Position numbers and translations under genes: made by a program | Source of the DNA: a virus | Lineage: Duplodnaviria > Caudoviricetes | Strand: one strand, 5' to 3' | Virus record (IMG/VR): IMGVR_UViG_3300048778_000101 | Location: 1 to 62,208 of that record | DNA length: 62,208 nt | The notes under the pieces: model-generated | Database searches by the model: none | Seen by the model: only the letters and a program-made list of their open reading frames with translations | What the model was told of the DNA's origin: nothing | Part shown: positions 245 to 53,174 of the stretch, one piece after another | Numbering within the stretch: position 1 is the stretch's first letter | Layout: each line of letters opens with the position of its first letter

Positions 245-246
245 CA

Positions 247-27782: not shown

Positions 27783-30700
27783 ACCTCGGGCACAAGTGCT
27801 AATACATTCATAGGCAGCGGATAGTCTTGTTGCAAAGCTACCTGCCCAGAGCGAGCAAAGCCGCCGCTAACTGGGATGCGCACATCCCCGGTATAGAGTG
27901 GGGTAGCTACGCCCCCGGCCAGTTGGGGGGAAGTGAATGGGTAGGGGGAATATAAATTACCGTAAGGCGGCTCAAATTGGGTATCCGGTACAGTGCTCAA
28001 ATTCTTCCAATTAGGGGCTATCTGCGGCGGGTTTTGCACAGAACCATCGGGCTGATTAGCTCCCACCTTAATTCCGCGGGAAGCTTCAAGTCTCGCCGTA
28101 ACTGCCGCAATCTTCTTGCGCTGGCCCTGGACTGTGGGGGAGCCGGCATCGAGATAAACACTTTGCAATTGGGCTTGGTAAGCCAGCCCTATGGTGATCT
28201 GCGAGGCACTGTTGGCTAAAGTAATGGTCCCTTGGGGGGATACCATCTGCGGGGGAATTACAATACCATCCGCGAGGCCAGTAACTACCAGCCCGGCCAG
28301 GTGATTTAGCCCATATACAACGGTAATGGGGGTACTGTACTCCCAATCTCCCAATACTGTTCCGTAAGTTCCGGGTAGTATTAGTGCCGGCACCCCAGGC
28401 ACAGTTGCCGTGAAGGGGGCTACAATATTTACCGTGAGTGCATCAAACCGACCTGCCGTAAAAACGGTGCTTGTAGTTATGGCGATCCCATTTCCGCCGC
28501 GAATAACTGTCCCTATGGGGAGGGTTGCTAGGATAGATGTGGGGACAGTTAGCACTGGCAAGCAGTAAAATGTGGCGGAATTATCCAATACACAGTGCGC
28601 GGAAGCCCCACTGCCTGTTCCGGCGGGATCTGAGATAGAGATTTTCGGGGTAACGTAGCCGGAACCTGCCATAGAGACGGTAACTCCGGTGAGCACCCCA
28701 CCAGTTATAACGGGACTAAGAACTGCCCCCACCCCATCTCCAGTAGTATCTGCTACAGTTACCGTAGTTCCGCTGGAGTAGCCAGTTCCCCCTGCTTCGA
28801 TAACTACACTAGCAATAGCCCCCAGCCCGTAAACACTCTCCACGATGAGATTAGCATCCGCAACTACAGGGCTGCTGTTGGCGGGGATAGTTCCAGTTTT
28901 CGCAATCCCGCTGTCCACACACCAAGAAGTTTCGGCGCTATTCCATAAGCGATTGTCCATACGCTCGATGGTGTAGGTACTACTGCCATTAACAATCCGG
29001 CGCACACAGCAGTACAAGGCGTCTACAGGAGGCTCCGTGACAGCGCAGACGCTCTCGAACAAGCCCGCCGTGTCATGCCGAGCCCACCCGAGCACTTCCT
29101 GTTGCTTCAGGATTGTTAAACTAAGCAGAACCCCATCATCGCGAACTGCCCAAATTACCTTGTAGGGTTCCTCGCACCAAGCCCATTGTTTAATGGTGTG
29201 GCCGATAAATAGATGCGAAGATAATTGGGTAAGATCCGTGCCCGTGTAGATATTTTGGAAGAATTGGTAGGAGATATCCCGAACAATGGAACCTTTCGCC
29301 TGAACGTAGAGGATATCGAAATCAATCCGGATTGGGGGGACTGTGGAAGAGATGCCATTGTAGGCTTGAGGTTGGGCGCTAACTCCGGAGGGGGTTATGG
29401 GCTGCACACTGTAGATGGAAGAGCCGGCTCCGGTAACTTGCCAAGCGGATAGCCCGGTTAGAACTACCAATCCGCCGGGCATGGGCACCAGCCATTGAAC
29501 TCCGTTAACCTGAACTGACCACGGGGTAGCTACAATAGAATCAGTATCGATAGGGGGAACCCGACTATCGAAATTGTTAAAAGCCCCTGACTGCGACATC
29601 CACAAAGTATCGGGGTTATTGATAGTTGAGGCAAACACCCGGCGCTCTTGGAAATAGCCGGGCACTGCTGGATAGGTGCCGGACTGGGGGCCGATTACCA
29701 GACTAGCTGTAGGGGCGACAGATCCGCTGATAAAGGTGGGGACGAGCGTAATTGTATCCGCAGCGGCGTAGCCAAAGCCAGAGTTAGTTACCACAAAGTT
29801 CTGGAAAACGCCATTGTCCCCAATCACGGCGTAACCGGAGAAGCCTGAGCCGGTGGTGGTGTTTATAGTTGCCGTAACCGCTGAAACCGGGTCACCAGCG
29901 CTTGTGGTATTGATTGTTAAAATCTGCCCGTGCGCAAACGGGTTATTGTGGATAGGAGGCACCCGCGAGTAATCTGCCGTAATGTTATTATCGACAAAAG
30001 TAGTGCCGTAACTGGTTCCGATAAACCCGAACAAGCTGCCAGAAGTGATTAGAGAGTAGCCGGTTATTGTGTTGTAGACGTTGTAGGCGGGAGGGGCTTT
30101 GTAGTAGTTGTAGTAGCCGGCTCCGGAAGTTGGGGAGCATTCGATAACTTCCGATCCAGCGGTTACATCAATTTCCACGCTGTTGGTAATTATGGCTACC
30201 GGAGATGCGGGGCTCTCCTCGCCGGTAGCGGCATCAACTGCGGTGGCTACGTATTGGTAGACGGTTGGGGAAGTCCCGGAGGAGACTGTTGTAGTGGCGC
30301 GGCCAGTTATTGAAGCTGGAGCTGCAATTGCAGCTACTGGGGCAGCTTCTGTAAGCGTCCAGGAGTTGTTAGCAGCTCCTCGCACCAAGTCGTAAGGGGG
30401 ATATTCGCTACCCGTCGTGGAGTTAACGCAGCAGAGTGTCATGGTATTTGCGGACTGCGTGTATTTAAGGTACTCTAAGTCAACGGCTGCCCAAGGCGTG
30501 GTGAAGGTGAATACTCGGGTAGCCGTGGAATAAGGAGTTCCATAGATAAAAGGGACATATCCCAGCGTAGATGCCGGGTTCCCAAATGCGTCAAGAAGGC
30601 TGAAACTGGTAGAGGATAGTTTGTTAATTACATAGATATTTCCGTTTAGGTTAAGCATGGTGGAATTGTTGTCGAAGTAGGTGTAGTCGAAGGTAGAAAA

Positions 30701-31084
30701 GCCATGGGGAGCTGTGGTGACTACCACGCCGGGAGTGGCTAGGGTTACGCTGGCAATGGTAGCGGAGACGGTGTCGAGTACATAGGCGCCTTGGTAAATT
30801 ACGCGCATGTAGTGATCGCCAAATTCCAGACAAAGCCCCTGGGCGGTAGAGAACTGGAAGGGAATTAAGCGCGGGGGAGGGGCGCCCGCAAAACCTCCGA
30901 GAGATTGCTTGCTAACTCCCACGAAAGCAGTTCCAGCGCGGGAATAGGCTCCTCCGCGGTAGCTGACAAACATATTTCGCATAGTGGAAGCTGCGGAGTG
31001 GAATTTGGCTAGGTCTACATGGCCGAATAGGGAGGGGGAAATTTCGCCAGAGGCGAAGGCCGTTTGAATAACTGGTACAGACAT
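27725..31084 (-). CDS. tail nozzle / tail tubular protein B with insertions
   Basis: QTAFASGEISP..G..D...NMFV..GGA..RAGT; YPAVPGYFQERRVFA; WMSQSG.FNNF; GWARH; QDYPLPMNVL. Confidence 0.9.
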   Translation of the reverse strand: MSVPVIQTAFASGEISPSLFGHVDLAKFHSAASTMRNMFVSYRGGAYSRAGTAFVGVSKQSLGGFAGAPPPRLIPFQFSTAQGLCLEFGDHYMRVIYQGAYVLDTVSATIASVTLATPGVVVTTAPHGFSTFDYTYFDNNSTMLNLNGNIYVINKLSSTSFSLLDAFGNPASTLGYVPFIYGTPYSTATRVFTFTTPWAAVDLEYLKYTQSANTMTLCCVNSTTGSEYPPYDLVRGAANNSWTLTEAAPVAAIAAPASITGRATTTVSSGTSPTVYQYVATAVDAATGEESPASPVAIITNSVEIDVTAGSEVIECSPTSGAGYYNYYKAPPAYNVYNTITGYSLITSGSLFGFIGTSYGTTFVDNNITADYSRVPPIHNNPFAHGQILTINTTSAGDPVSAVTATINTTTGSGFSGYAVIGDNGVFQNFVVTNSGFGYAAADTITLVPTFISGSVAPTASLVIGPQSGTYPAVPGYFQERRVFASTINNPDTLWMSQSGAFNNFDSRVPPIDTDSIVATPWSVQVNGVQWLVPMPGGLVVLTGLSAWQVTGAGSSIYSVQPITPSGVSAQPQAYNGISSTVPPIRIDFDILYVQAKGSIVRDISYQFFQNIYTGTDLTQLSSHLFIGHTIKQWAWCEEPYKVIWAVRDDGVLLSLTILKQQEVLGWARHDTAGLFESVCAVTEPPVDALYCCVRRIVNGSSTYTIERMDNRLWNSAETSWCVDSGIAKTGTIPANSSPVVADANLIVESVYGLGAIASVVIEAGGTGYSSGTTVTVADTTGDGVGAVLSPVITGGVLTGVTVSMAGSGYVTPKISISDPAGTGSGASAHCVLDNSATFYCLPVLTVPTSILATLPIGTVIRGGNGIAITTSTVFTAGRFDALTVNIVAPFTATVPGVPALILPGTYGTVLGDWEYSTPITVVYGLNHLAGLVVTGLADGIVIPPQMVSPQGTITLANSASQITIGLAYQAQLQSVYLDAGSPTVQGQRKKIAAVTARLEASRGIKVGANQPDGSVQNPPQIAPNWKNLSTVPDTQFEPPYGNLYSPYPFTSPQLAGGVATPLYTGDVRIPVSGGFARSGQVALQQDYPLPMNVLALVPEVWVGDTPQIEARPRQQGTR

Positions 31085-31189
31085 TCTGGCCTCGGGGAAT
31101 TTGTTAGCTCCGGTTAGGATAAGGGGAATTTGGACAAAAGTCTAGCGGGGATTTGGGTAGTTGCCGGACGGGGCTTGGCGTAATTAGGG

Positions 31190-31990
31190 GGATTTGAGAG
31201 GGCCGTAACTAGTCGCGCTTAACCCGACGCCACGGGGCTTCTTATTTGCTGAAACTAGGAATGCTAAACCTACCGCAATTAGGAATGCTTAATTCACCAG
31301 AATTAAATAGGATAAGTGTCCGCCGCAACTAGGCACGCCAAACTTTTCAAGCTAACTTATAACTAACTTCAATTTCGCTAGGCCCCCTGGAAATCAACGA
31401 TTTATCGTACCACGCAAATAGCATTCTGGCAAGAGAAATCCGCTAGTTAGCTTAAGTATTATTAAAACAAGCCGAGATAATTCCGGGCAGTCGCAAGTCT
31501 TGTGTAATTGCCAATTCCCGGCGGAGCCGGGTATAGCTGGAGCCGGGTATAGCCGGGTATAGCTGGAGAATGGTGAGCCGGGGAATGGTGAGCTTGGGAA
31601 TTGCAAGTTAGAAAGTGATGAGTTAAAAGACGAATTGGCAACTGCAAACTAGACCCGAGCTACCCCGGCGCCGCCAGGCTGATTAGAGTTTGGCTAGCTC
31701 GGATAGTTGGTTTAATTGGTCGAAGCTGAGCCGATGCGAATCAGTTTAATTTATTATAACAATACCCGGCGGAGCCGGGGGTAATCGAAGGATGGCAGTT
31801 TCTAGCCTGTCAAATCGCCAAACTAGTCGAAGCTAATTAGAAACTGGCAGCCCCATTTAACCCGCCCAAACAATACCCGTCGTAGCCGGGAATAGCCGAG
31901 CAATCTGCGATAACTTCTAGCTATAGTACATCTATAATAGGAAGCCCGCGGGCCCGCGGCAAAGCACGACTAGTTATCTCAAACCCCCAC
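31190..31990. other. structured non-coding element A (iteron-like boxes, GNA hairpins, palindrome, flanking inverted repeats)
   Basis: no credible ORF; motif-by-motif homology to 52010-52852. Confidence 0.75.
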
Positions 31991-32023
31991 CAGCAATACT
32001 CATCCCGCAAGTTCCCAAATACA

Positions 32024-32067
32024 CAAAATAAAACAGACCAGCCCCAACTCAATGAGACTAGTCTGTT
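32024..32067 (-). terminator. Rho-independent terminator of the head/adaptor operon
   Basis: minus strand AACAGACTAGTCTCA-TTGAGT-TGGGGCTGGTCTGTT followed by TTATTTTG; G:U pairs work only on the minus strand. Confidence 0.7.
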
Positions 32068-32093
32068 ACCAATTCCCCTAATTAACCCTAGAC

Positions 32094-32969
32094 CTAATAA
32101 GCGGACCCGTCCGAAAACCCGCAGGTATCCCAGCCATAACCCAAAGTGCCCATACCCGCAGCGAACCCGCCAGCCCCCCAGAGCCTAGTCCCGCTATCCC
32201 TAATCCGCATCCAATCCGGCGTATGGTCCGTAGAATACCAACCCTCATTCCCATCCGTAATCCGAGCTTGCTGCAACTTACTCTTAGCAACGGCAATCTG
32301 TTGCCCCCGCAACTCCAGCCCAAACTTTTTATCCTTACTCAATGTAAGCGCAACCTCACTAGCCAAATAAGCCACAAAGGCCGCCCTAAACAATGCATCC
32401 CAAATACTCGGAAACATAACCAGCGACGTGTAAACCAACTGCGCCTGCGCTACATTAGTCAAGATAACAGTCTGCCCCGTCGGACTAACCCCAGGCTGCT
32501 CCCAATACTGCCCTTGCATCGGAGGGATGTTATTAAAATCCGTAGCTACCGTAAACCTAGCCGGAACCATCCGTATCGAACTTTGCGTGGGCGAACCAAC
32601 CTGCGCCACCGGATTAGGCGGAGCCATAATATTCCCCGGAGCCCCACTCGCCGTGGAGTTAAATGCATTAACCGGAACAAACCTAGCCTTAACGCAATCC
32701 GCCGGATACTGATACTCATACTGCCACGGAACCGGAACTACAGTCCCCACATTAGGCGTCTGCCCACTCCCGTCAGCCAGCAGAAAGAGGGGCGCTGTCT
32801 TTCTGGCAAAATCCCAATGTGCAGCACGCAGCAACTGCCGAACGCACTGCCCATAGGCCCGTAAGCATACCTGCGCCTCCCGCGTCCCCTCTTCCAAATC
32901 GCCAATTACGACCTCGCTTCCAATCGCATCCAATGCTTGATTAACTACATCTGCGGGTAAATTAGCCAC
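32094..32969 (-). CDS. tail adaptor / tail tubular protein A paralogue 4
   Basis: DVVNQALDAIG...LLRAAHWDFA...WQYEYQYPADC...WDALFRAAFVAYLA. Confidence 0.85.
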   Translation of the reverse strand: MANLPADVVNQALDAIGSEVVIGDLEEGTREAQVCLRAYGQCVRQLLRAAHWDFARKTAPLFLLADGSGQTPNVGTVVPVPWQYEYQYPADCVKARFVPVNAFNSTASGAPGNIMAPPNPVAQVGSPTQSSIRMVPARFTVATDFNNIPPMQGQYWEQPGVSPTGQTVILTNVAQAQLVYTSLVMFPSIWDALFRAAFVAYLASEVALTLSKDKKFGLELRGQQIAVAKSKLQQARITDGNEGWYSTDHTPDWMRIRDSGTRLWGAGGFAAGMGTLGYGWDTCGFSDGSAY

Positions 32970-32971
32970 AA

Positions 32972-33598
32972 TTAGCCCCTTTCCGAGGTGGCTTCAACCG
33001 TACTGCGCAAGGCTAGATCGGCATCCAGTTTCTGCTCGGCCAGCCTCTCCTGCGTCAGTATAGCTATCCTAGGAGATAGTCTTTCCGCCAGCTTAGCCAC
33101 AAGCACTTCCACGAACAACGGCTCCCAGGTGGACATGTCTGTAACTTGCCCGGTGTAGGTCAGAATTGCCCCAGTCACATTGCAGCAAATTGTCTTCTGC
33201 GCGGGCGAATACGACGTATCATTAATCACCGCAAACGAATTAGGCTGCGGATCGAAATTAGGTATCCAAAGCGGAGCGGCTTTAATCGATCGCACTTTAA
33301 GACAATCGCCGGGATAACTATATTCAAACATCCACGGGATCGGGGGATACGCGGGGCTCCAGACCGTAGGCGGAATATACCCATTAGCCGGAGCTACCTT
33401 CAGCACACTTAAGGACAAGTTTCTTTCTGCAAACCCATAGTCATTCGCACGAAGGGCCTCATCCCTAGTCTGAGAATACACCTCCAGGGCAGCTTCAGCA
33501 GCCGGGCTTCCCTCGAACAAATTACCGATACGCCGATCAAACCCCAGCCTCACCAGAGCTTGATTTACAATATCCTCTGGCGAAGTTGGGGATGACAT
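32972..33598 (-). CDS. tail adaptor / tail tubular protein A paralogue 3
   Basis: DIVNQALVRLG...DEALR..YGFA...WMFEYSYPGDC...WEPLFVEVLVAKLA. Confidence 0.85.
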   Translation of the reverse strand: MSSPTSPEDIVNQALVRLGFDRRIGNLFEGSPAAEAALEVYSQTRDEALRANDYGFAERNLSLSVLKVAPANGYIPPTVWSPAYPPIPWMFEYSYPGDCLKVRSIKAAPLWIPNFDPQPNSFAVINDTSYSPAQKTICCNVTGAILTYTGQVTDMSTWEPLFVEVLVAKLAERLSPRIAILTQERLAEQKLDADLALRSTVEATSERG

Positions 33599-33601
33599 AG
33601 C

Positions 33602-34228
33602 TTAAGTTTCCGTAACAGAAGCGACCTGGAACGCATTATCAGCATCCGTATCACTCTGTTTCAGCAGAGCTTCAATGTGCTGCATATTAGCCAGCGCAAC
33701 GGTGAAAGCTTTGGCCAATTTATCAACCAGCGCATTTACGAACAACGTATCCCAAGTGGTCATATCCGTAATTTGGCCAGTGTAGGTCAGAACCAAATTC
33801 GGAGCATTTGCCAGGATAACTCGCTGCGGAGGCGTGTACGCGCTATCATTGCCCACGGCAAAATGCTGCGGAAGCGGGTCCAAATTAGGCAGAACAGCCG
33901 GAGTACTCTGAACATACAGCACTCGGATGCAGTCTGAGGGATAAGCATACTCATATTCCCAAGGGAGAATAGGATATGTATTCGCCCAAGGAGTTGAGCC
34001 ATAGCCACCTGTGGGGGCAGATTTAAGCTGCGTCAAAGTTACAGTTCGCTGCGCAAACCCCCAGTCTTTCATACGCAGGGCTTCATCACGGCTCTGGGAA
34101 TACAAATCCAACGCCAACTTACTGGCCGGACTGCCTTCAAACAAGTTACCAATTCGGCGCGGGTAGCCGAGCTTCCCCAGCGCCATATTAACAATGTCTT
34201 CTGGAGACGTAACGCTACTAGCCATCAA
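33602..34228 (-). CDS. tail adaptor / tail tubular protein A paralogue 2
   Basis: DIVNMALGKLG...DEALR..WGFA...WEYEYAYPSDC...WDTLFVNALVDKLA. Confidence 0.85.
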   Translation of the reverse strand: MMASSVTSPEDIVNMALGKLGYPRRIGNLFEGSPASKLALDLYSQSRDEALRMKDWGFAQRTVTLTQLKSAPTGGYGSTPWANTYPILPWEYEYAYPSDCIRVLYVQSTPAVLPNLDPLPQHFAVGNDSAYTPPQRVILANAPNLVLTYTGQITDMTTWDTLFVNALVDKLAKAFTVALANMQHIEALLKQSDTDADNAFQVASVTET

Positions 34229-34788
34229 TCTTGCCTTTCCTGGCCAACTTGTTCAAACGCCGCCGACTGGTCTAGCGTATCTCTGGAGGTATCCGGTTTA
34301 CCTGCAATTGCCATAGCCATGCTGGAAGCCAACATCCGCACAACAGTTTCGCGGAAAATAGAGTCCCACAAGTTCTCCGATGGGACATTTGTATACATAA
34401 CTTGTGCATTCGGCAAGTTAGTTTGGATTACTTTTGTTGGAATTCCGCCCACCAGGGAATTAGCGACCTCCCATCGAATGGGCAACGGGTTAAAAGGATC
34501 TGCGAGTGTCGGAGGATTTAACTGCCGGACTTGGATACCATTCGGATACAGGTACTCAACAGTCCACGGGAACGGGGCGGTATTCCCTGACAGAACCAGC
34601 GCGGCAGTGGTTCGAGAAAAATCCCAGCCGAACCGACGGCCTACAGTTTCAACCGTCGGAAGATACAAAGAAGCAGCCGCTACACCCGCAGGAGAACTGT
34701 CAAATGTAGGATAAGTCCCAGTAACTGGGGTTTGATTATCCCCGATTAGCTGGATAGCTTGGTTAACGATGTCAGTTGATGTAACCAT
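34225..34788 (-). CDS. tail adaptor / tail tubular protein A paralogue 1
   Basis: DIVNQAIQLIG...WDFS...WTVEYLYP...WDSIFRETVVRMLA. Confidence 0.85.
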   Translation of the reverse strand: MVTSTDIVNQAIQLIGDNQTPVTGTYPTFDSSPAGVAAASLYLPTVETVGRRFGWDFSRTTAALVLSGNTAPFPWTVEYLYPNGIQVRQLNPPTLADPFNPLPIRWEVANSLVGGIPTKVIQTNLPNAQVMYTNVPSENLWDSIFRETVVRMLASSMAMAIAGKPDTSRDTLDQSAAFEQVGQERQD

Positions 34789-34791
34789 GGC

Positions 34792-37071: not shown

Positions 37072-37143
37072 TTTGAAATAGTTGAGAGTTACGGTGAGAT
37101 TCCGGTGGCGAGGCCAGAAGGGTGAAGTTTTTGTTAACTTGCG

Positions 37144-37647
37144 TTAACTCGGAAGTGTCCAAACGACTGCTTGGACGGCGGCTTCTGTGGTTGCGGCGCA
37201 GATCTCAGCCGCAAGAACAGAATTTTGAACGACAAGCGCCTCTTTAGCCACGCTGCCATCCTGTAGAACCTTCAAGATTTGCGGGGCCGTGTGTGCGACA
37301 TAGCCCCAATTTCCAGAAGCATCGGCGCACCAGAACTTTCCGCCAATACCGCCAGCCACCAAACCCACCAGATTGGCTTGGTCGGTTTGGCCTGACGGAT
37401 AGGTATAGACCGCCCCAAGCGCGGAAGACTGAAAGCCCCCAATAATGGCCGACGCACATCCAGCAGATACGGCGTAAATTTGAGTGTCTTGCGCCTGCGC
37501 CAGGGCGGCGGCGGCATAACCCGGAAAGGCCGTGGCCAGTTGGGCCGGGGTGGGGAAATCGTCGAACAACACCTCGCCGGCAGCCGGCGTGTGATCGTTG
37601 GAACAGCAGGAAATGTAGCTCCCATTACCACTCGCTACATACATCAC
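37144..37647 (-). CDS. tail-fibre-associated protein (DUF4376-like)
   Basis: IIGGFQSSALG..YTYPS..TDQANL...FWCAD...HTAPQI..V...AATTEAAVQAVVW. Confidence 0.75.
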   Translation of the reverse strand: MMYVASGNGSYISCCSNDHTPAAGEVLFDDFPTPAQLATAFPGYAAAALAQAQDTQIYAVSAGCASAIIGGFQSSALGAVYTYPSGQTDQANLVGLVAGGIGGKFWCADASGNWGYVAHTAPQILKVLQDGSVAKEALVVQNSVLAAEICAATTEAAVQAVVWTLPS

Positions 37648-38570: not shown

Positions 38571-39782
38571 TCAACTCCCCGCATAAGCGACCCAATCGGC
38601 CGCTGTTCCGTTGATGAAAAGATCGCTGAGATTGGCGACGGCGAAACTGATCCCCGTGCCCGGAGCCAGCGGATAACCCGTTCCGGTGCCGCTTGATGTC
38701 GTGTTCACACCAGTGGCTCCGACATAAATTGTCCCGGCGTTACTGCTGGCTGCCGTGATGATGACGCCATTGGTAAGGGCTCCGCTCCCCAGAACAACCG
38801 CTGTATTTGTGACCGCGATAGCCTTCTGCCCGCACACAGGAGCCGCTGGTAATGGAGTTACCACCGGCATGCTGTTGGCAATAGTCGCCGGCCCGAGTGT
38901 GGGGAGCTTTGCGTTAACAGCCGCGAGCAGATACGCTCCCTGGGAAGTCCACCCGTTGAGTCCAACGCCACCCGACATCAACGTCGCGGCAGAAATCGCC
39001 GTACCGTCCTGCGCGGGGGTGCCAAGCTGCGTCAGGATCGCCGCCAGCGTAGTCTGTGTAGCTGCGCCTGCGGGCAACGGCCAACTGCCCGGCGGATTAA
39101 TGCTCACCGTGTCCGTGCCAGACGCCAACATCCAAGTGCGGCCGGTGGACCATGTGCCACTTTGCGTAACCGCCCTCGGGCCGCTCGCAGTCGAGGCAAT
39201 AGTCGAGAGATAGCCGATCTCGGTGGCTTGGTTGGCTGCGGTTGCGGAGCCTGTCGGAAGCGGCCAACTCGCGGGCGGAGTGACCGCGACCGTCCCAATC
39301 GCCGCAGAGCCTGCGCCAAGCGCTACAGTCCACGACCCGGACTGAGCGGCGGCGACGCTGTCCGTCCCGCTGGTCAAATCCCAGGTGCGTCCGGTGCTCC
39401 AAGTTCCCGATTGCGTAACCGCCCTTGGACCACTAGCAGTCGAAGCAATCGCAGAAAGGTAGCCAATTTCCGTAGACTGATTAGCAGCAGTTGCTGCACC
39501 TGTGGACAATGGCCAACTACTGGGGGGAGTAACCCCTACAGTCCAAACCCCTGACTGCGTTGTGGCGATAGTTCCGCCAACCGAGACATCCACAGTTCCG
39601 ACAGACGCCCCGGAGAGGGGTACTGGAGTTCCAGTAATCGTATAAGGCACATTGCCGGGAATAGATACCGAAATAAGCGGATTGCCGAGTCCGCAATCTA
39701 CATAACGAAAATAGTTGCCGCCCGCCCCGTCTTGCCAGAGATCTGACCAACCGTTGCCAGAAGATCCACCCAAGTTACTCAT
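38571..39782 (-). CDS. fibre/decoration protein with internal repeats
   Basis: repeated WPL.TG.ATAANQ.TEIGYLS.IASTASGPRAVTQSGTWSTGRTW; C-terminal beta domain N.GTIYVG..GYPLAPG. Confidence 0.7.
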   Translation of the reverse strand: MSNLGGSSGNGWSDLWQDGAGGNYFRYVDCGLGNPLISVSIPGNVPYTITGTPVPLSGASVGTVDVSVGGTIATTQSGVWTVGVTPPSSWPLSTGAATAANQSTEIGYLSAIASTASGPRAVTQSGTWSTGRTWDLTSGTDSVAAAQSGSWTVALGAGSAAIGTVAVTPPASWPLPTGSATAANQATEIGYLSTIASTASGPRAVTQSGTWSTGRTWMLASGTDTVSINPPGSWPLPAGAATQTTLAAILTQLGTPAQDGTAISAATLMSGGVGLNGWTSQGAYLLAAVNAKLPTLGPATIANSMPVVTPLPAAPVCGQKAIAVTNTAVVLGSGALTNGVIITAASSNAGTIYVGATGVNTTSSGTGTGYPLAPGTGISFAVANLSDLFINGTAADWVAYAGS

Positions 39783-45682: not shown

Positions 45683-45709
45683 ATACTAAGTCCTTTCTAT
45701 ACTGGGCAG

Positions 45710-46872: not shown

Positions 46873-46880
46873 GGGAACTC

Positions 46881-47294
46881 CTAGTGCAGCATACCAGTGG
46901 ACTGTACGTGCTGTTTTGAGGTAATACTGGCCGGGGGGAGGATCGCCCCTTTAATTCCGGTTTTATCGTGCCGAAGATGCTCGGCCAAGTTAGCTCCTAG
47001 GCGCAAATTATCTCCAAGCATCCCAAACAACTTGCGGGGCCGCCTGCCACGGAGCCATCCACCAGCTTTTTCGTGTGCCATCTCCATGGCAATTCCCAGA
47101 GGGAACCAGCGAGAGTCTTCTCGCCAATGCCCAACTTGGCGACAGCATCCTTCGATAAGTTTAAGGGACTTTCGCAATTCCCCATATGCCTGCCCCATGA
47201 CAGGCAGCTTTACCAGTCTATCACAGCAACTAGCTGCCTTCTTAAAATTCTCCACCATACAGGAGAAGATTTCACCCTCAGTTAGATCAGACAT
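46881..47294 (-). CDS. hypothetical protein
   Basis: ORF between the portal and the Bbp19-like gene. Confidence 0.6.
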   Translation of the reverse strand: MSDLTEGEIFSCMVENFKKAASCCDRLVKLPVMGQAYGELRKSLKLIEGCCRQVGHWREDSRWFPLGIAMEMAHEKAGGWLRGRRPRKLFGMLGDNLRLGANLAEHLRHDKTGIKGAILPPASITSKQHVQSTGMLH

Positions 47295-47296
47295 AC

Positions 47297-49111
47297 TTAT
47301 TGTCCTCCCGGAATTCCGAGTAATGCATTCAGTGCAGAATTTCCACCCACATTAGTTTCGCTAAGTGTCTTAGCAGCCTGTACCCCGGCCATAGTTGGAG
47401 CAATTGCCTGCTGCTTAGCCTGAGCACTCTGCCGGGCGGCGTCCTGTTCCTGCACCTCCTTCGCAGTGTACAAAGCATCGGCAGGGAAGCTACTCATATC
47501 TGCGTACCTGCGCATTGCGGCGTCCAGATTGAAAATACGCAGGGGATCGGGAACTCCGGCAGCTTTGGCAGCGGCGCTCATACTACCAGCCATGCCTAGG
47601 GTATCTTTCATAGCTACGGTTTCAGTAGCCCTTTGCGCCAGCTTTAGAATTGAAATGTACTCAATCTTCAGCGGAACATTGTGCAAAGACTCCGGCAATG
47701 GGAGTAGCATCCCCCGGCGCCGCATAATTGACAATACTCTGGTAATGGCCGGTCCGGCGAACTCTGTCTCAAACAGTTCAATAAACGGCCCAAGTATCTG
47801 AAGACGCTCCAGATCTCGCTTAGTTAGCTCCAACTCATTCCTGGGCTGCACACCTTCCATCTGGCTAATTGCCATAAAGATGTCTGTGAAAAAACATTTC
47901 TTAATCCGATCCTGGATCTCCTTAATATCCTGTACAATCGGTTGCAAGGCTTGAGGGTTAACTTCAAACAAGGGGAAGAAGCCCTTTCTACCGCCAGCCG
48001 TGCTCATGTAGGTAATCTGGCCGGGGAGGATCGAACTAGGCTCATTCTTCAATTCTGGATCAGCCCCCATCGGAGGTCTAACTACCTTTTCAAGTAATTC
48101 CGCCTTCCTGCGAGTTTCCTGCTGAAGCTGTTTTATATCTCCAAGAGCATCCATACCGGGACTACGCCCGTAGGGATCATTGCTAACTGTAGACCAGCGG
48201 GCTGCCATGAACGGGCGTTCGTTAAAACCCCGCCTGGACAGTTCTCGGTCAGTTTTAACCCCCTTTAGCCAATATACCTCTCTCCAGGGGAAATGGCCGG
48301 GAACCACAGTTACTGAAGCAGTCTCACCAGTACCCCGTTTGGAACTGATTGGGGCATTAGGTTCAATAGCATGCGCAACCACATGCTCCAATGACAAACT
48401 TGCTCCCCCAGTTTCCCAGGCAGTTCTAACTTGCTGCGGGCAATTATCCAGGGTAAACATCTCTACTATCTGCGCTGTGTTCAGTGTGAACTCCCGGTAA
48501 AAGGCATCGACACTGAGCCGGCCTCCGACATCGAGATAGTATTCTCCCGCGCACGAACCATAGCAGCGAATTACATCCTCATCATCTTCATAGATAATTA
48601 TGGGAGCCGTACCGAATGTAGTAACATCTTGGAAAGCTTGGGCCATAGTTGTATAGAAATTAGATTGGCCCAGTACAGTATAAAGCTTCCTTTCTGTGTC
48701 CTCGATCCAATACTTCCCATCCCGATCAAGCTGGTCATAACTATTACCGAGCTTGAACCAGGGTCGCGAGGGGCTAGTTAGCCCGGTCCAAAGTCCGCTG
48801 GAGCATGTCTGCATAGCCAGGGTAGCTGTACTATCCACGATACTCTGGTTAATTGGGCTGCCTCGGGTCATCCTGTTGGCAACCACTAGCCAGTGATACC
48901 GGCGCGGGAGAATGTATTCTGCCAAACTTGCCCAATAGGCCCACCAACTATAGCGCCAACTGCGAAGCATACCCAAGCGAGATTCACAAGCCCCATAGAT
49001 AGCAGGCCAATCTTTACCCGCTGGGGCGGGATTACCCAAAGTTAGGGGCTGTTGTGCCAGTAGCGTGGGGCTCATATGTTCGTAAGGGGCGGAACTGAAA
49101 TCTTCAGCCAT
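47297..49111 (-). CDS. portal protein (head-tail connector)
   Basis: DSTA..A...L.SGL..GLTSPSRPWF; SNFY; RW....YGRSPGMDALGD.KQLQ; IEYISIL..AQ. Confidence 0.93.
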   Translation of the reverse strand: MAEDFSSAPYEHMSPTLLAQQPLTLGNPAPAGKDWPAIYGACESRLGMLRSWRYSWWAYWASLAEYILPRRYHWLVVANRMTRGSPINQSIVDSTATLAMQTCSSGLWTGLTSPSRPWFKLGNSYDQLDRDGKYWIEDTERKLYTVLGQSNFYTTMAQAFQDVTTFGTAPIIIYEDDEDVIRCYGSCAGEYYLDVGGRLSVDAFYREFTLNTAQIVEMFTLDNCPQQVRTAWETGGASLSLEHVVAHAIEPNAPISSKRGTGETASVTVVPGHFPWREVYWLKGVKTDRELSRRGFNERPFMAARWSTVSNDPYGRSPGMDALGDIKQLQQETRRKAELLEKVVRPPMGADPELKNEPSSILPGQITYMSTAGGRKGFFPLFEVNPQALQPIVQDIKEIQDRIKKCFFTDIFMAISQMEGVQPRNELELTKRDLERLQILGPFIELFETEFAGPAITRVLSIMRRRGMLLPLPESLHNVPLKIEYISILKLAQRATETVAMKDTLGMAGSMSAAAKAAGVPDPLRIFNLDAAMRRYADMSSFPADALYTAKEVQEQDAARQSAQAKQQAIAPTMAGVQAAKTLSETNVGGNSALNALLGIPGGQ

Positions 49112-49114
49112 AAC

Positions 49115-49339
49115 CTATTGCCCCAGGAGAGTTTTAGCGGCAGTTGCAGTAGTCCCGGTGACGCCTTGAGCCGAAGTTCCGCCCAAAGTGTCACTAAAAC
49201 CCATACCACCAGCCGCAGCAGCAGCGGCTCTTTGTGCAGCAGCAGAACCCGCAGCCTGTACTTGCGCACTAGCTTGCGTAGCCGGGATAGGCGGAGGCGA
49301 AACTGCGGCAGGTGCTGCGGGAGTAGATCCACCACCCAT
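49115..49339 (-). CDS. small Ala-rich virion protein
   Basis: MGGGS.P..PPP...KTLLGQ pattern between TerL and portal. Confidence 0.65.
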   Translation of the reverse strand: MGGGSTPAAPAAVSPPPIPATQASAQVQAAGSAAAQRAAAAAAGGMGFSDTLGGTSAQGVTGTTATAAKTLLGQ

Positions 49340-49351
49340 AATTAGAACTCC

Positions 49352-50788
49352 TTACCAGATTGTGGAATATTTATCATCATGCCCGTCGAATGGGTCGTAG
49401 TCAAACTTATGCCACCCACTTCTAGCGGCTGACTTCCTGCGAGCGGTTACGGGGAAAGCGAAAGTTAGGGCAAACGCATCTGCGTGGTCCGGGGAGTAGC
49501 CAAGTTTGCCTTTAATAACGTCCTTAGGCTCCAGAATAAGTTTACTGCCCTTGAAAGTGTAGGTAGTAGCCGAAAGCGCATCGAAGAGCTTCTTATTGTA
49601 AGGAAGAGCGCCCCCACGTTTGACCCATTCGATAGCTTGGAAGTACATCTCCGCTCGCTTATTGGCGTAACGGGTATCATCGCCAGCCTTAGTAGCAAAA
49701 CCAACTCCGATTGGGGACTTTCCAAGGTTACGGAGTTGGTCTAGCCAGCCGGCGCCAAACCCGCCGGTATCATCTACAAAGCAGGCGTCTGCACCCCAGT
49801 TATCCCATTCGCGAATGGTAACCTCAGCCCCTTGGGTACTATCCAGTCCGCGATAATCCAAAAATCCGAAGCATTGAACACCCTGGCGCTTGCAGATTAC
49901 GCTCTCATCATCCCCGTGGCGAGCTACGTCAATCCCAAGAACCTTAGCAGCTACTCCTATGTCAAATTCTCTGTAGTATCTTTTTGAGGCAGCTTCCAGT
50001 TCCGGTAGCCCTATTAAGGCATTCAGGGATTGCGGCGGGAATTGCCCAAACACATTGACTAGCACCCAGGGATTATCACGGCCATACTTTTCAATCTGCT
50101 CATTGGCCCACTGCACGCTAATTCGAGGGGATCTCTTCGGGCTTTCGGGGTCTCCGGTAATTTCCACAACATACCAGAGGTGTTTTTCATCGGTGGTAGC
50201 TCTGTATAGCGGGCCTTCTCGCATGGTGGGATTACCGGCTTGGATAATATGCCCTTCTTTACAGGAAGATAGGGCAGCTTCGGCAGTAGCCATAACTGCG
50301 TCCGGGATACCGCCGCTCTCATCCAGAAGGAATAGGATAAAATCGGCATGCAGCCCAGCCAGGGTGTCCGATTGCTGGCTTTTGTCGGCAGTTTTACTCC
50401 AAGTTCGCGCCGTCATAAACCAAGTTTCGGAGTATTCCTTGTGGCTAATTCTGGTCTTAGTCCAAGTAAACATCTCTTTTAGTAGTGGAGAATTTTCCTG
50501 CCACTTCGCCATTTCGGCCCATAGATTATCAGATAGATTATCCTTGCTGATTGAGGTAGCCGCAACTTTGGGCATGGGACGGGTTAGTAGAAAGTTCCAA
50601 GCCAACCAGGCCAACAAGGCTGTCTTTCCGGGGCCTTTGCAAGCCTTCATAGCTATGCGTTGGTTTTTTGGGAAAGCTTGGAGAACTTCCGCCTGCCAGT
50701 CGTCAGGTTCTACTCCGAAGAGTTCCCGGACCATAACTACTGGATCATCGCGCCAGGCCCGGAGTTTGGCAATTGCTGGTAGACTCAT
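49352..50788 (-). CDS. terL: terminase large subunit
   Basis: KACKGPGKT, FLLDESG, GNP, LGIDVAR.GDD, SPD.ADA.ALTF. Confidence 0.95.
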   Translation of the reverse strand: MSLPAIAKLRAWRDDPVVMVRELFGVEPDDWQAEVLQAFPKNQRIAMKACKGPGKTALLAWLAWNFLLTRPMPKVAATSISKDNLSDNLWAEMAKWQENSPLLKEMFTWTKTRISHKEYSETWFMTARTWSKTADKSQQSDTLAGLHADFILFLLDESGGIPDAVMATAEAALSSCKEGHIIQAGNPTMREGPLYRATTDEKHLWYVVEITGDPESPKRSPRISVQWANEQIEKYGRDNPWVLVNVFGQFPPQSLNALIGLPELEAASKRYYREFDIGVAAKVLGIDVARHGDDESVICKRQGVQCFGFLDYRGLDSTQGAEVTIREWDNWGADACFVDDTGGFGAGWLDQLRNLGKSPIGVGFATKAGDDTRYANKRAEMYFQAIEWVKRGGALPYNKKLFDALSATTYTFKGSKLILEPKDVIKGKLGYSPDHADAFALTFAFPVTARRKSAARSGWHKFDYDPFDGHDDKYSTIW

Positions 50789-51357
50789 TTCTTATCCCAG
50801 TCTTTTGAGATAGGTTGGAAGGGGTCTAGTTCCAAGGAGTCTGCTATACTATCCAGGTCTGTGGAATTATCCACGGGAGTTATATCAACTAACTCTGGGT
50901 CTTCGTAGCTTTTGGTTACTAGATCGGCCCAGGTTAGTTTGACGTCGTGTTCGATTTGCTGCTTGTCCCGCCAGCTAACTTCACGACGATTTTTCAGCCA
51001 GAAAGTAGCTGCTGCTGTGTCTGGGGCGACGTCTTCTCTAGTTTCGGTGACAGTTATGGAACCTTCGCTGTCGGTAACTGTTTTGGTAGTGGTTTTAACT
51101 CCGCCGATTGCCCGATTATAGAGTGCCAGAGCTACTTTACCGTCGGATTCTACGCGGCCTTGGGATAGGTAGGTAGTTATCTCCGGCGTGCGCTTCTTCC
51201 AGGAATTGAAAATAGCCTCGCTAACTCCGAAGTAAGCTCCGATTTCGGCATCGGCAAGCCCCAACAAGGCCAGTCTGTACACAGTAGCCAGTGCTTCTTG
51301 CCGGGAAGTTGCGGGAATAGCTGCGGGGACAAGTGAGACTGCTGTTTTCGGGGGCAT
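50785..51357 (-). CDS. terS: terminase small subunit
   Basis: LLGL.D.EI..YFGVS....NSWKK; V..ALY.RA.G; PDT.A..FWLKNR...WRDK. Confidence 0.88.
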   Translation of the reverse strand: MPPKTAVSLVPAAIPATSRQEALATVYRLALLGLADAEIGAYFGVSEAIFNSWKKRTPEITTYLSQGRVESDGKVALALYNRAIGGVKTTTKTVTDSEGSITVTETREDVAPDTAAATFWLKNRREVSWRDKQQIEHDVKLTWADLVTKSYEDPELVDITPVDNSTDLDSIADSLELDPFQPISKDWDKK

Positions 51358-51579
51358 TTAGGAAGCCTCCGAGCGGGTTTTGTAGATTAGGTTCTGGAAA
51401 CCATTGCTGTTTAGCATGTAGCTTACCCAAGATTGCGGCAAATGCAGCAATTCAGCATAAGTTTCATGGGAAGCTTCGGGAAGTTTGAGAACTAGGTTAA
51501 GCAGATCATCTTTAGCGGGCATGGGAAGGTTCCTTAGCTGATTTAGCTGAGTATGCCATGCCAGAGGGTTTAATGTCAA
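51358..51579 (-). CDS. small HTH-like protein
   Basis: ASHETYAELLHLPQSWVSYML.S..FQ. Confidence 0.5.
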   Translation of the reverse strand: MTLNPLAWHTQLNQLRNLPMPAKDDLLNLVLKLPEASHETYAELLHLPQSWVSYMLNSNGFQNLIYKTRSEAS

Positions 51580-51583
51580 TTGA

Positions 51584-51907
51584 TTAGGGGAATTCGCGAA
51601 GGGTTTGGTCGATTATTGCATCGACCATTTGGTTATCTATTTTCAGTATGGCCAGATAACCGGACTGGGTAGTTTCATCCCATACTTGTTTGACGCGAAG
51701 TCTCCAGGCGGTTTTGATTAGCGGGTACCAGATGTGATCGGGACGGGTTCTGATAGTTTCCAGGAAGTATTTCCAATAGCGATGTGTATTTTCCAAATGC
51801 GGGCGGGAGAGGCAGAAAGCAAATTTAGCGCGGGAGGTAGTTTGCAGTTTTTCTAGGATTATGTGGAATTCAATTGGGTAGTCATCGGGATCGTGGTGGC
51901 GGATCAT
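51584..51907 (-). CDS. hypothetical protein
   Basis: GGAG RBS; first gene downstream of element B. Confidence 0.55.
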   Translation of the reverse strand: MIRHHDPDDYPIEFHIILEKLQTTSRAKFAFCLSRPHLENTHRYWKYFLETIRTRPDHIWYPLIKTAWRLRVKQVWDETTQSGYLAILKIDNQMVDAIIDQTLREFP

Positions 51908-52009
51908 AGTTGCGCTCCGTTTGGAATTGTCAGATTTAGTTAGCGGCGCTTGGTGAGCTTGCGAACCTTAGCAGAGCTTACGGCGCGTTCATATGAATTT
52001 TTGCATTTA

Positions 52010-52852
52010 ATTAACTGGCGCATTTGCCATGTGCTTATATTGAAACTAGTCATGCTAAACCCGAATTGAAACTAAGCATGCTAAACTCCGGGATAATTAG
52101 GCACGCCAAACTTTGAGATAATTAGGAGCCTCTAACTAGCACGCGCTGTCCCCCGCAAACCAACGATTTATCGTAGCATGAAATTCCGCAGTTAGCAAGG
52201 CTAATCTTATCCAAGCTAGAATTAAAACCCCGTCGAAGACGGGTATAGCTCCATAATTGCCATAATTGCCATAATTGCCATAATTCCGAAACCGACAGCT
52301 GTAATAATATAAATAACTCCACCCAATTTCCGCGGAGCCCGGCGGAGCCGGGGATAGTTCGGGATAGTTCTAGATAGTTCCAGCTAGTTCTATAGTTTGC
52401 AAATACCTGGAGTAGCTCAACAGTTACCGGAATTGCCGCAATCACCTAGTATGGTTAAAGAATTAGCCGCAATTCCCGCCGAACAAGTCCCGCGCGGTTT
52501 CGGAAACTGCTAGTTATAATGCACAATCCCCGCGCAATTCCGGCAGTTCCCGCGCAAGCTTTGGCCCGCCGGAGGTGGGTATAACTCTGCCAGCTAGTCT
52601 AATTCATGCCAGTTGGTCTAATACAGCTTCTAATTAATATGAAACAGTTCCTGAGATAACTAGCGAGGCTAATTTGAATTACCCAAAATTGGGAAATCGC
52701 CAAGTATGGGGGAACGCAACCGACCCCCGCCACCCTACCCCCAAACTCCAAATTAGCCCCCCTACCCCAGTCTAGCCAATCTCGCTAGTTAAGCTAAGCT
52801 AATCAAGCCGCGAGCGCCGCGGGCCCGCGGTTAAGCGTCCCTAGTTACGGGC
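52010..52852. other. structured non-coding element B, homologue of element A
   Basis: same motif order as 31190-31990, plus (CCATAATTG)x4 and TAGTTC tracts phased at 10 bp. Confidence 0.75.
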
Positions 52853-52931
52853 AACTGCGCCCGTCCTTAGTCGACTACGGTCCTAGGGGGCATGGGCCAA
52901 TTAGACCGGTCCCCATGCCCCCTACGAGGCC

Positions 52932-53174
52932 CTAGATACGCATCCACCCCCCTAGGCTAACTGCCCACACCTGCCGCCCCCTAGTAGCCCTGCGGGACCG
53001 CTCCAGGAAGCTATACAGGCGGTCCTTAACGCCCTCCACGCGCTTCGCAATTACCGCCGAGGCCCTACGACGATAGGCCAGTATCTGCCCCTCGACGACA
53101 TCGTACTTATCCAGCACTAGACGCGCGGTCAGGGCGACGATAGCTTTGGCTTGCTGTAAATTCATGATAATCAC
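52932..53174 (-). CDS. hypothetical protein
   Basis: GGGGAGG RBS. Confidence 0.45.
   Translation of the reverse strand: MIIMNLQQAKAIVALTARLVLDKYDVVEGQILAYRRRASAVIAKRVEGVKDRLYSFLERSRRATRGRQVWAVSLGGWMRI

Follow-up and report, generated by a model that had tools for sequence, protein, structure and literature searches.

Local flips of silent-site strand skew at two homologous non-coding cassettes in a peat phage genome

Why the plus strand of a phage genome should switch abruptly from G-rich to C-rich at two separate places, each time across a non-coding element, is the question raised by the stretch of DNA analysed here (the window, 62,208 nt). The genome, which comes from peat, is a complete circular contig of about 62.1 kb, and near-identical copies in one JGI contig and in four other runs support the sequence as real. 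The 127-nt overlap of the contig has the length of an assembler k-mer and so does not demonstrate a terminal repeat.

The six hand counts of G and C given for the plus strand in the initial annotation were all exact on recount. Left of the first element (A), they are G40/C20 at 30961–31080 and G46/C16 at 31081–31200, and right of it G10/C41 at 31981–32100 and G23/C54 at 32101–32220; for the second element (B), they are G38/C17 at 51841–51960 on the left and G9/C37 at 52721–52800 on the right. When the skew step, defined as the 1 kb on the left minus the 1 kb on the right, was scanned genome-wide (sd of the step 0.105), the biggest plus-to-minus GC-skew drop (0.46) was found at 31.75–31.85 kb, at A, and the second biggest (0.36–0.37) at 52.0–52.1 kb, at B. 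The sharp flip described for each element is thus real, the two top drops of the genome coinciding with the two elements. Furthermore, cumulative GC skew, predicted to peak near 31.6 and 52.4 kb, peaks locally at about 31.7 and 52.0 kb. The maxima predicted for AT skew had the wrong sign: A−T as plotted gives local minima at the elements, the change being clear at B (−0.14 to +0.09) and weak at A.

Element A is a 1009-nt non-coding cassette (31085–32093) inserted where relatives have two tail genes side by side, and no credible ORF, Rfam family or tRNA was found in it. Its junctions with the flanks are covered by contigs from three other runs and by metagenome contig L076. The G-rich left arm (31085–31250, plus strand, G59/C31) contains four GGGGRATTTG-like repeats (31094, 31123, 31146 and 31187) and is an imperfect inverted repeat of the C-rich right arm (31936–32093, minus strand, G23/C54), with pairing between 31206–31246 and 31936–31976 (41 nt, 73%), 31151–31177 and 31994–32020, and 31171–31194 and 32071–32094. 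The right arm, which shares a repeat family with B, also holds a 14-nt perfect palindrome, CCGCGGGCCCGCGG, at 31946–31959, an inverted 17-mer-like copy, and a terminator-like stem (32067–32032, minus strand) just past the stop of a 291-aa gene. The 17-mer itself, AAYTAGGMAYGCYAAAC, is present in three direct plus-strand copies (31253–31343); it has 11 matches in the genome against 1.36 expected, nine of them in or at the two elements, and these could be iterons or promoters. In addition, A contains a 15-nt block, CAACGATTTATCGTA, with the dyad symmetry ACGAT-TT-ATCGT (31395–31409), and three copies of a hairpin module, CCCGGC-GNA-GCCGGG (31517, 31765 and 31876; 31517–31890, plus strand), each followed by short tandem repeats, the hairpin at 31779–31765 being terminator-like on the minus strand.

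Upstream of the packaging genes lies element B (51908–52931; 1024 nt, non-coding), the twin of A, homologous and collinear with it (71% column identity) and in the same orientation. It carries 17-mers at 52044, 52070 and 52095 on the plus strand and at 52830–52846 on the minus strand, a dyad block (52161–52175) identical to the copy in A, hairpins at 52229, 52338 and 52565, and a palindrome at 52817–52830. Of the seven copies in the hairpin family (four in A, three in B), one is not a hairpin; the stems are preserved in B despite two-sided changes (CCCGTC..GACGGG and CCCGCC..GGTGGG).

According to the gene map and PHROG matches, A is flanked by minus-strand tail genes on both sides. On the left lies the 5′ part (29000–31084) of the gene for a 1119-aa tail protein (27725–31084; phrog_376, E=2e-158), and on the right four paralogous tail genes (291, 208, 208 and 187 aa; 32094–34788). 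The three paralogues searched (291 aa, 208 aa at 32972–33598, and 187 aa) match phrog_394, and the other 208-aa gene shares 52% identity with the searched one. Left of B, terL, terS (phrog_309) and two small ORFs occupy 49352–51907 on the minus strand, TerL being about 55% identical to that of Xanthomonas CP2-like phages. Right of B, there are only three short candidate minus-strand ORFs (80, 101 and 56 aa; 52932–53684) with low coding scores, and the two searched (80 and 101 aa) had no PHROG match. The statement that both elements are flanked by minus-strand genes therefore stands for both sides of A and the left of B, and is plausible for the right of B. Gene direction was rejected as the cause of the flip.

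Four-fold sites were scored as plus-strand G or C against a genome baseline of G1431/C1355. The counts were G122/C46 at A-left (p=7e-8), G60/C154 at A-right (p=3.5e-11), G138/C66 at B-left (p=6e-6) and G30/C39 at B-right (p=0.22, not significant and underpowered), so that three of the four flanks are individually significant. The flip had been said to reach the synonymous sites of the flanking genes: this is confirmed on both sides of A and on the left of B, while on the right of B the flip is confirmed only in raw sequence, where the plus strand is C-rich (skew −0.16 to −0.33 per 120 nt), and in the non-coding right part of the cassette (52660–52931, G65/C96). By gene, the four-fold G/C counts are 74/41, 34/14, 8/5 and 22/6 at B-left and 17/71, 22/47, 21/36 and 19/29 at A-right, with 127/105 in the next gene. 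Third-position skew in the four flanks is +0.60, −0.45, +0.22 and −0.26 against a baseline of −0.02 to −0.09, and codon positions 1 and 2 are near baseline; the flip is almost entirely a third-codon-position effect.

All eight four-fold codon families show the same order of G/(G+C), left below baseline below right. Furthermore, C/(C+T) in NNY codons is 0.57 on the left, 0.43 at baseline and 0.29 on the right, and G/(A+G) in NNR codons is 0.37, 0.57 and 0.72, respectively, a shift of two-fold sites that C>T plus A>G changes on the strand with its 3′ end inward would predict; at B-left, two-fold T/C is 103/57 against 697/941 at baseline (p=2e-7). At silent sites, the plus strand is G/T-enriched at A-left and B-left and the minus (coding) strand at A-right, there weakening with distance from A. 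It is thus true at silent sites, and for both transition types, that the strand whose 3′ end points towards the element is the G/T-rich one, and the earlier argument that a conventional bidirectional origin would show the reverse polarity is correct, the predicted signature being present.

The third-position signal was compared with a null in which the amino-acid sequence was kept and codons were redrawn 1000 times from genome-wide usage. The genome-wide maximum third-position drop in the null was 0.34 ± 0.05 (largest 0.53). The observed drop at A, 1.10, lies above all 1000 draws, and that at B, 0.30–0.49, is the second-ranked peak and marginally above the null; third-position peaks beyond noise are therefore present. 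Exponential fits to four-fold sites outward from the cassette gave decay lengths of 1.5, 1.5 and 2.0 kb for A-left, A-right and B-left (LRT 39.3, 44.6 and 16.9), in agreement with the predicted decay over 1–2 kb, and P(G) is 0.86, 0.13 and 0.78 at the cassette edge against 0.46–0.55 far away. At A-left, four-fold plus-strand skew per 500 nt rises from 0.15–0.26 (29.0–30.0 kb) to 0.56, 0.60 and 0.78 (30.0–31.08 kb), and on the coding strand the 1119-aa gene runs through −0.63, −0.56, −0.15, −0.31, −0.03 and −0.26 from its 5′ end, a gradient absent in the five orthologues examined. Baseline minus-strand genes have G/(G+C) of 0.40–0.56 and show no long-range replication skew; the process behind the skew is thus local. 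The change in composition is dominated by a net C-to-G shift, with T gaining 0–7 points at four-fold sites.

Among 10 distinct relatives, the two tail genes around A are adjacent (gap ≤25 nt) in eight and separated by small ORFs in two, and cassette A is present in none. The flip at this junction is absent in all seven relatives where both genes were measurable, the four-fold skew difference across the two genes being −0.17 to +0.24 as compared with +0.92 here. The largest raw 1-kb drop was 0.25 and 0.19 in two complete relatives and at most 0.28 across 35 TerL-related loci. Judged from these sequence comparisons, the flip is lineage-specific and tied to the cassette. Because searches turned up cassettes of this kind in no other genome, the association of cassette with skew effectively has n=2 sites. 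Across the mapped ends of three reference phages there is little or no such flip: the third-position drop is +0.05 in lambda, −0.04 in SPP1 and +0.23 in T7, the last of the same sign and about five times smaller than here.

Altogether, the two DNA strands differ locally, in a way that depends on distance from two homologous non-coding cassettes of ~1 kb gained by this phage lineage; the asymmetry has the cassettes at its centre and lies almost wholly at silent positions. The best reading is a local strand-specific mutation bias with the polarity of a terminus or DNA end, and we infer that such a bias, and not selection on proteins or codons, is the cause. That it arises from recurrent interruption of DNA synthesis at the cassettes is held tentatively, at somewhat less than an even chance. 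The strand running 5′→3′ into the cassette would repeatedly be single-stranded for longer over about 1.5–2 kb on each side, and would gather C>T and A>G changes and become G+T-rich. The cassettes, crowded with hairpins, repeats, terminators and 17-mers that resemble promoters or iterons, would most likely be the sites of interruption. Forks arriving from either side might stall there, exposing the lagging-strand template over about one Okazaki length; or DNA might break or end there, 5′→3′ resection leaving 3′ tails that would feed the phage's own recombination module (a Sak4-like annealase, a PD-(D/E)XK exonuclease, a Dda-like helicase and PolA). The suggestion that both elements are recurrent DNA ends may hold, although forks arrested at the element, or unwinding ahead of leading-strand synthesis, would expose the same strands. 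Simple deamination does not fully predict the net C-to-G shift with its small gain of T. The non-significant B-right flank, the marginal standing of B against the null and the small drops at reference-phage ends were counted against the mutation-bias reading.

It is very improbable that the flips have no special cause beyond amino-acid composition, expression-linked codon adaptation or chance. The many Ser, Thr, Ala and Pro codons in the 5′ part of the tail gene raise plus-strand second-position G (0.43 against 0.19–0.28 at baseline), and B alone exceeds the null marginally; however, third positions carry the effect, the eight four-fold families shift together, no amino-acid-preserving null reaches the value at A, and orthologues of the same proteins lack the flip. 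Amino-acid composition was rejected on these grounds, as was chance for A, and codon adaptation was rejected as well, since the capsid-region genes deviate from the genome by avoiding A-ending codons, an axis distinct from keto versus amino. A transcriptional cause was considered unlikely. Transcription converging on the cassettes, sense from the right and antisense from the left, could expose non-template strands (e.g., in R-loops), or RNAs leaving the cassette could be kept C-rich and G-poor by selection (Rho-sensitive, R-loop-averse). The 17-mers of the cassettes are indeed promoter-like, and hairpins in them resemble terminators of the minus-strand operon upstream; the right flanks are operon 3′ ends, where the G+T-richness of the coding (non-template) strand is as expected from transcription-associated deamination. 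The left-flank coding strand, however, is C+A-rich, the opposite of that bias for the annotated direction. Antisense transcription on the left is purely hypothetical, with no run containing the phage on record as RNA, a sigma-70-type scan gave no promoter excess, and the uniform shift across codon families and T/C and A/G two-fold sites fits mutation better.

Mosaic ancestry, in which recombination brought in the flanks from phages of very different coding-strand third-position skew and the cassettes simply lie where modules join, is likewise doubtful. Coding-strand four-fold skew in related phages ranges from about −0.7 to +0.95, with structural genes of L008 mostly at −0.2 to −0.86 and terL of L033–L038 at G153–179/C4–17, so imported blocks could in principle differ in skew; short-segment exchange does occur, since a 39-kb contig of another organism has only 37086–37524 in common with this phage; and the cassettes occupy operon and module boundaries. 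Yet mosaicism would have to draw on oppositely skewed donors for the left and right flanks, at two separate sites and always with the same polarity, whereas the observed skew decays with distance to the left and right of A, and inside one gene, instead of forming blocks, composition is unchanged at codon positions 1 and 2, and four-fold GC content of the flanks (51–59%) fits the baseline of 52%. Lower still is the probability we assign to unusual origins, at which a helicase loaded at the cassette would unwind 1–2 kb both ways before leading-strand synthesis catches up, leaving near-origin leading-strand templates (3′ end towards the origin) single-stranded longest. An origin-like set of features (the 17-mer in three direct copies, a conserved dyad block, hairpins and AT-rich stretches) occurs twice in the genome, the phage has a Dda-like helicase and PolA whereas a search of 20 proteins recognised neither a primase nor a hexameric helicase, and the exposure polarity of this model would, by our reasoning, agree with that observed. 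Against it, the genome lacks the minus-to-plus far-field polarity that any origin should give, neither cassette adjoins a recognised initiator gene (the neighbour of B encodes a CobS/MoxR-like ATPase), and the helicase-first model is ad hoc; we know of no precedent for such unwinding ahead of leading-strand synthesis.

Among known systems, the GC-skew shift at the bacterial replication terminus (ter/dif) shares the plus-to-minus switch on the plus strand, with the G-rich strand running 5′→3′ towards the site from both sides. The phage asymmetry, in contrast, is local (~1.5–2 kb) and very strong, four-fold P(G) falling from 0.86 to 0.13 across A; it is not preceded by any replichore-wide skew, and there are two sites in a 62-kb phage. 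In vertebrate mtDNA, C>T and A>G changes enrich the exposed strand in G+T at silent sites, the more so the longer it is single-stranded, and the gradient extends over the whole genome in line with strand-displacement replication from a single origin; the phage shows a similarly graded enrichment of one strand, but as two short mirror-image gradients meeting at a non-coding cassette. Strand-coordinated mutation clusters at resected double-strand breaks in yeast and tumours are somatic or experimental, with 3′ tails targeted, the damaged strand switching at the break and a length scale set by resection tracts (kb). The strand switch and kb scale are alike, whereas the phage skew is an equilibrium composition fixed in the genome and a break is only proposed. 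RSF1010 oriV and P4 ori/crr are iteron-type origins with paired single-strand initiation hairpins, P4 having two related sites, ori and crr, in one genome. The cassettes, also two related sites per genome, resemble them in three direct repeats, AT-rich stretches and stable G-N-A-loop hairpins on one strand, and differ in having no recognised initiator or primase and a skew polarity opposite to that expected of origin-fired or strand-displacement synthesis. Finally, B resembles the concatemer-junction and terminal-repeat regions of T7-like phages, which are long, non-coding, placed beside packaging genes and furnished with promoters, short tandem repeats and hairpins, whereas cassette A lies amid the tail genes, 20.8 kb from B.

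Skew in strand composition is usually taken to reflect, across a whole genome, the direction of replication or transcription. In this phage it is instead linked to two non-coding cassettes peculiar to the lineage, A (31085-32093) and B (51908-52931), across each of which the plus-strand GC skew passes from plus to minus. The flip is a compositional strand asymmetry, a known phenomenon, here short-range, mirror-symmetric and independent of gene direction, as observed in one genome. A non-exhaustive search found no account, in the portion of the literature it covered, of skew at silent sites flipping locally around intergenic elements in phages.

The tailed-phage genome is the whole 62,208-base record; the same 127 bases stand at both of its ends, as is characteristic of circular assemblies made at k=127. 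Plus-strand genes extend from 53738 across the record origin to 14971; according to Pfam and PHROG searches, they include those for PolA with an N-terminal UDG-superfamily domain, a Dda-like SF1 helicase, a PD-(D/E)XK exonuclease, a Sak4-like annealase, an HNH endonuclease and a CobS/MoxR-like ATPase. Minus-strand genes, including terS, terL and head and tail genes, run from 53684 down to 15012. In the family-A DNA polymerase (11105-13543), the uracil-DNA-glycosylase-superfamily domain occupies residues 29-178, before the 3'-5' exonuclease and polymerase domains. Cassette B lies upstream of terS at a distance of 550 nt that takes in two small ORFs, and has the CobS/MoxR-like ATPase gene as its neighbour; the first early genes beside it (53738-55967) encode this AAA ATPase (phrog_249) and a DUF7192 protein, with a 71-nt gene overlap. 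Cassette A lies 20.8 kb away, between tail genes. Directly adjoining it, at 32972-34228, a phrog_394 tail gene of 208 aa occurs as two tandem copies (52% identical, with a common 79-nt stretch of 77% identity), where relatives have one. Near-identical sequence is contained in peat metagenomes from many studies (22 listed runs, all assembled contigs). Since the junctions of A with its flanks are spanned by contigs of three other runs and by JGI contig L076 (the same phage, 99.5% identical), the arrangement is not an assembly artefact; contig breaks within A at low depth were given no weight.

The two cassettes are devoid of credible genes, collinear, in one common orientation and identical at 71% of columns. 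Each carries three direct 17-mers near its left side and one inverted copy at the right, far edge, a 15-nt dyad block identical between A and B, the 14-nt perfect palindrome CCGCGGGCCCGCGG, and several CCCGGC-GNA-GCCGGG hairpins followed by short tandem repeats, with some hairpin copies changed on both stem sides. On the plus strand, the loop of every hairpin module (31517-31890 and 52229-52579) is three bases long and of the form G-N-A (GGA, GTA, GAA); the modules also have conserved flanks, AATWCC before and TATAG-like after, and the tandem repeats that follow vary between copies. The two ends of A, ~150 nt each, are imperfect inverted repeats of one another, the left rich in G and the right in C, with arms of 41 nt at 73%, 27 nt at 74% and 24 nt at 79% identity. 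In B, the best inverted pairs are weak, and their left arms fall within an ORF. The left arm of A is the only place where the motif GGGGRATTTG is clustered, and no oriented Chi- or KOPS-like oligomer explaining the G-richness was found; such an oligomer was rejected as a candidate, the enrichment at k=5-8 on the G-rich strands being weak and diffuse (TAGGG, 23 forward vs 4 reverse). Genome-wide, TAGGGG is not enriched (38 matches vs 44.7 expected). Across the whole window there were no Rfam matches at gathering score and no tRNAs. Exact and degenerate motif scans of viral_contigs and genome_contigs gave nothing related to the cassettes: one scan returned 10 hits with no protein or DNA similarity to the window, and the others returned none. 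Likewise, nhmmer searches with the cassettes over ~0.9 Mb of collected loci matched only L076, and blastn against cultured phages gave no match.

The six hand counts of G and C in the initial annotation were all exact on recounting, and the flips are indeed centred on the cassettes. When 1 kb to the left was compared with 1 kb to the right along the genome (sd 0.105), the two largest plus-to-minus drops genome-wide were those at A (0.46) and B (0.36-0.37). Independence from gene direction, which had also been proposed, holds around A, with well-supported minus-strand tail genes on both sides, and to the left of B, with terS and terL; to the right of B it rests on three short unsupported minus-strand ORFs. 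Third-position plus-strand skew is +0.60 in A-left (29000-31084), -0.45 in A-right (32094-34788), +0.22 in B-left (49352-51907) and -0.26 in B-right (52932-53684), against a baseline of -0.02 to -0.09. Codon positions 1 and 2 in the flanks are near baseline, save position 2 of a Ser/Thr/Ala/Pro-rich tail-gene start (0.43 vs 0.19-0.28). Because the flip is carried at third codon positions, both outcomes that the initial annotation had named as fatal to its claim, namely absent third-position peaks and an origin in amino-acid composition, fail to materialize.

Four-fold sites, compared with a baseline G/C of 1431/1355, give plus-strand G/C of 122/46 in A-left (p=7e-8), 60/154 in A-right (p=3.5e-11), 138/66 in B-left (p=6e-6) and 30/39 in B-right, an underpowered flank in which the deviation is not significant. 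With the protein sequence fixed and codons redrawn from genome-wide usage, the null drop never exceeded 0.53 in 1000 replicates, and the observed drop at A is 1.10. The drop at B (0.30-0.49) ranks second genome-wide but exceeds the amino-acid-preserving null only marginally. Amino-acid composition was rejected as the cause by the codon-position split together with this null. The evidence base is one genome with two cassette sites, one of the four flanks being underpowered.

The direction of the bias is consistent across codon families. G/(G+C) is ordered left < baseline < right in 8/8 four-fold families. At two-fold sites, C/(C+T) in NNY codons is 0.57 on the left, 0.43 at baseline and 0.29 on the right, and G/(A+G) in NNR codons is 0.37, 0.57 and 0.72, respectively. 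On the plus strand, G and T are gained in the left flanks and C and A in the right flanks, so that the keto-enriched strand on each side is the one whose 3' end points towards the cassette; both transition types are involved. The composition change is chiefly a net C-to-G shift with a modest T gain, and simple deamination is therefore an incomplete account. The decay over 1-2 kb that had been anticipated is borne out by exponential fits of 1.5 kb (A-left), 1.5 kb (A-right) and 2.0 kb (B-left). At the cassette edge, the probability of G given G or C is 0.86 in A-left, 0.13 in A-right and 0.78 in B-left, and far away it is 0.46-0.55. Within the single 1119-aa tail gene, the coding-strand four-fold skew runs from the 5' end as -0.63, -0.56, -0.15, -0.31, -0.03 and -0.26. 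Population variants among contigs comprise ~40 listed differences, mostly outside the flanks, too few for a polarised mutation spectrum.

The comparison with related genomes suggested by the initial annotation provides a natural control. Ten distinct related contigs carry the tail-gene pair, with protein identities of 28-62%; the tail genes are adjacent (gap <=25 nt) in 8/10 and separated by small ORFs in 2/10. A ~1-kb non-coding element lies between them in 0/10, and nhmmer finds no element homologue in these contigs. The coding-strand four-fold skew difference between the two tail genes ranges from -0.17 to +0.24 in the seven measurable relatives, vs +0.92 here, and no 5'-end gradient was seen in orthologues of the 1119-aa tail gene. 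The largest raw 1-kb drops in two complete relatives are 0.25 and 0.19, and none above 0.28 occurs in 35 of 47 TerL-related loci, the other 12 having been left out as short, partial or more distant (L052, L057, L058, L061, L063-L066, L069, L071, L073 and L074). Since relatives have neither cassette A nor the flip, the flip is lineage-specific and coincident with the cassettes.

For every class of element tested, at least one defining feature is missing where it could be tested. The absence of A in 10/10 relatives and the two copies here correspond to the precise-site presence/absence polymorphism and multiple copies of MITE-like elements. The three 17-mers per cassette are the several direct repeats of a binding-site-sized motif found in iteron-type origins; no cognate initiator, primase or helicase gene, which usually lies adjacent, was recognised among the 20 proteins compared with Pfam/PHROGs. 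The cassettes resemble iteron-type origins, and also T7-type junction regions, in anatomy only. A conventional bidirectional origin has a minus-to-plus switch in plus-strand GC skew, and both cassettes switch from plus to minus. This is the sign of a bacterial replication terminus without its long range: no replichore-long skew of constant sign leads to the switch, the decay extending over only 1.5-2 kb, and minus-strand genes away from the cassettes have a flat silent-site G/(G+C) of 0.40-0.56. Because skew towards the cassettes is not long-range, the pattern does not fit a simple convergence of forks in a theta replicon, and the process must act within ~2 kb. As for the recurrent DNA ends proposed in the initial annotation, the polarity is that of a DNA end or replication terminus, the reverse of a conventional origin, but mapped reference ends show little flip. 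Third-position drops across mapped ends are +0.23 in T7, +0.05 in lambda and -0.04 in SPP1, compared with 1.10 at A, and none of these termini has left a flip comparable to that at A; the phiKMV ends yielded no value, with too few coding sites nearby. At +0.23 (keto +0.27), the modest drop at the T7 (L075) ends nearly reaches the maximum for that genome, 0.27, and it agrees in sign with the flips described here. Genome-wide maximum drops in T7, lambda, SPP1 and phiKMV are only 0.27-0.45, and the change in four-fold P(G) from 0.86 to 0.13 across 1 kb at A exceeds the largest flip in these four reference phages.

Transcription-associated asymmetry, with a G+T-rich coding strand along annotated genes, is not found overall: the coding strand is G+T-rich on the right flanks but C+A-rich on both left flanks. 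Codon adaptation was rejected, since the likely highly expressed capsid-region genes deviate on another axis: they avoid A-ending codons (T/(A+T) 0.78-0.87, NNR G 0.56-0.86) with ordinary G/(G+C) and C/(C+T), whereas the flanks deviate along the keto/amino axis. Mosaic import of the flanks from other phages is possible in principle, because phages of very different silent-site skew do exist; it would then illustrate a sharp contrast in mutational history between phage modules. However, donors of opposite skew would be required, with matching polarity at both sites, and the decay with distance does not follow from import.

The data support a local, strand-specific mutation pressure at the cassettes. 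Mitochondrial DNA acquires strand asymmetry from time spent single-stranded, and in mutation clusters at resected breaks the damaged strand switches; the flip pattern works like both. Exposure of the strands concerned could arise through 5' resection at a break or end, through arrest at the cassette of forks coming from either direction, which would bare their lagging-strand template, or at an origin where unwinding runs ahead of the leading strand. Stalling or breakage at the cassettes, taken together, rank first of the three routes, at somewhat less than an even chance. The cassettes are packed with hairpins, repeats, terminators and sites that proteins might bind, and the phage has a recombination module but no recognised primase. 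A fuller reading, possible though rather doubtful, is that the cassettes are sites of recurrent breakage or fork arrest starting recombination-dependent replication, with the ~1.5-kb silent-site mirror gradients preserving, over evolutionary time, how long the 3' single-stranded tails are and which way they point. On that reading, sequence alone could suffice to map recurrent ssDNA intermediates in uncultured phages. If recurrent single-strandedness is the cause, silent sites would show which stretches of phage DNA are exposed, and over what length, in the course of replication or recombination. Ends, fork barriers or recombination start sites could then be located from sequence in the many phages known only from metagenomes, and orphan intergenic cassettes would gain a concrete, testable function.

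Several further observations were made in this genome and its relatives. Six terL loci of one phage group in viral_contigs (L033-L038) have an extreme genome-wide silent-site G bias, with four-fold G:C of 153-179 to 4-17 and coding-strand skew of 0.83-0.95. The opposite extreme within related protein families is a 50.5-kb contig with terminal repeats (L008/G004), in which the four-fold sites of most structural genes strongly favour C, the coding-strand skew lying mostly between -0.2 and -0.86. In a complete 56.5-kb relative (G001, also L021), positions 1-13900 hold only very short ORFs under table 11, on mixed strands and with erratic silent-site skew; this first ~14 kb may contain few genes or follow a different genetic code, or a crude gene caller may have treated it badly. 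In the present genome, a direct repeat of 189 nt (39110-39547; 71% identical, spacing 249 nt) lies within a 403-aa minus-strand gene. Finally, a 39-kb contig (~65x) of another organism or phage in run X3 matches the window only at 37086-37524, inside a 167-aa gene, over 440 nt with 12 differences and 2 indels, which suggests that phages exchanged a short segment.
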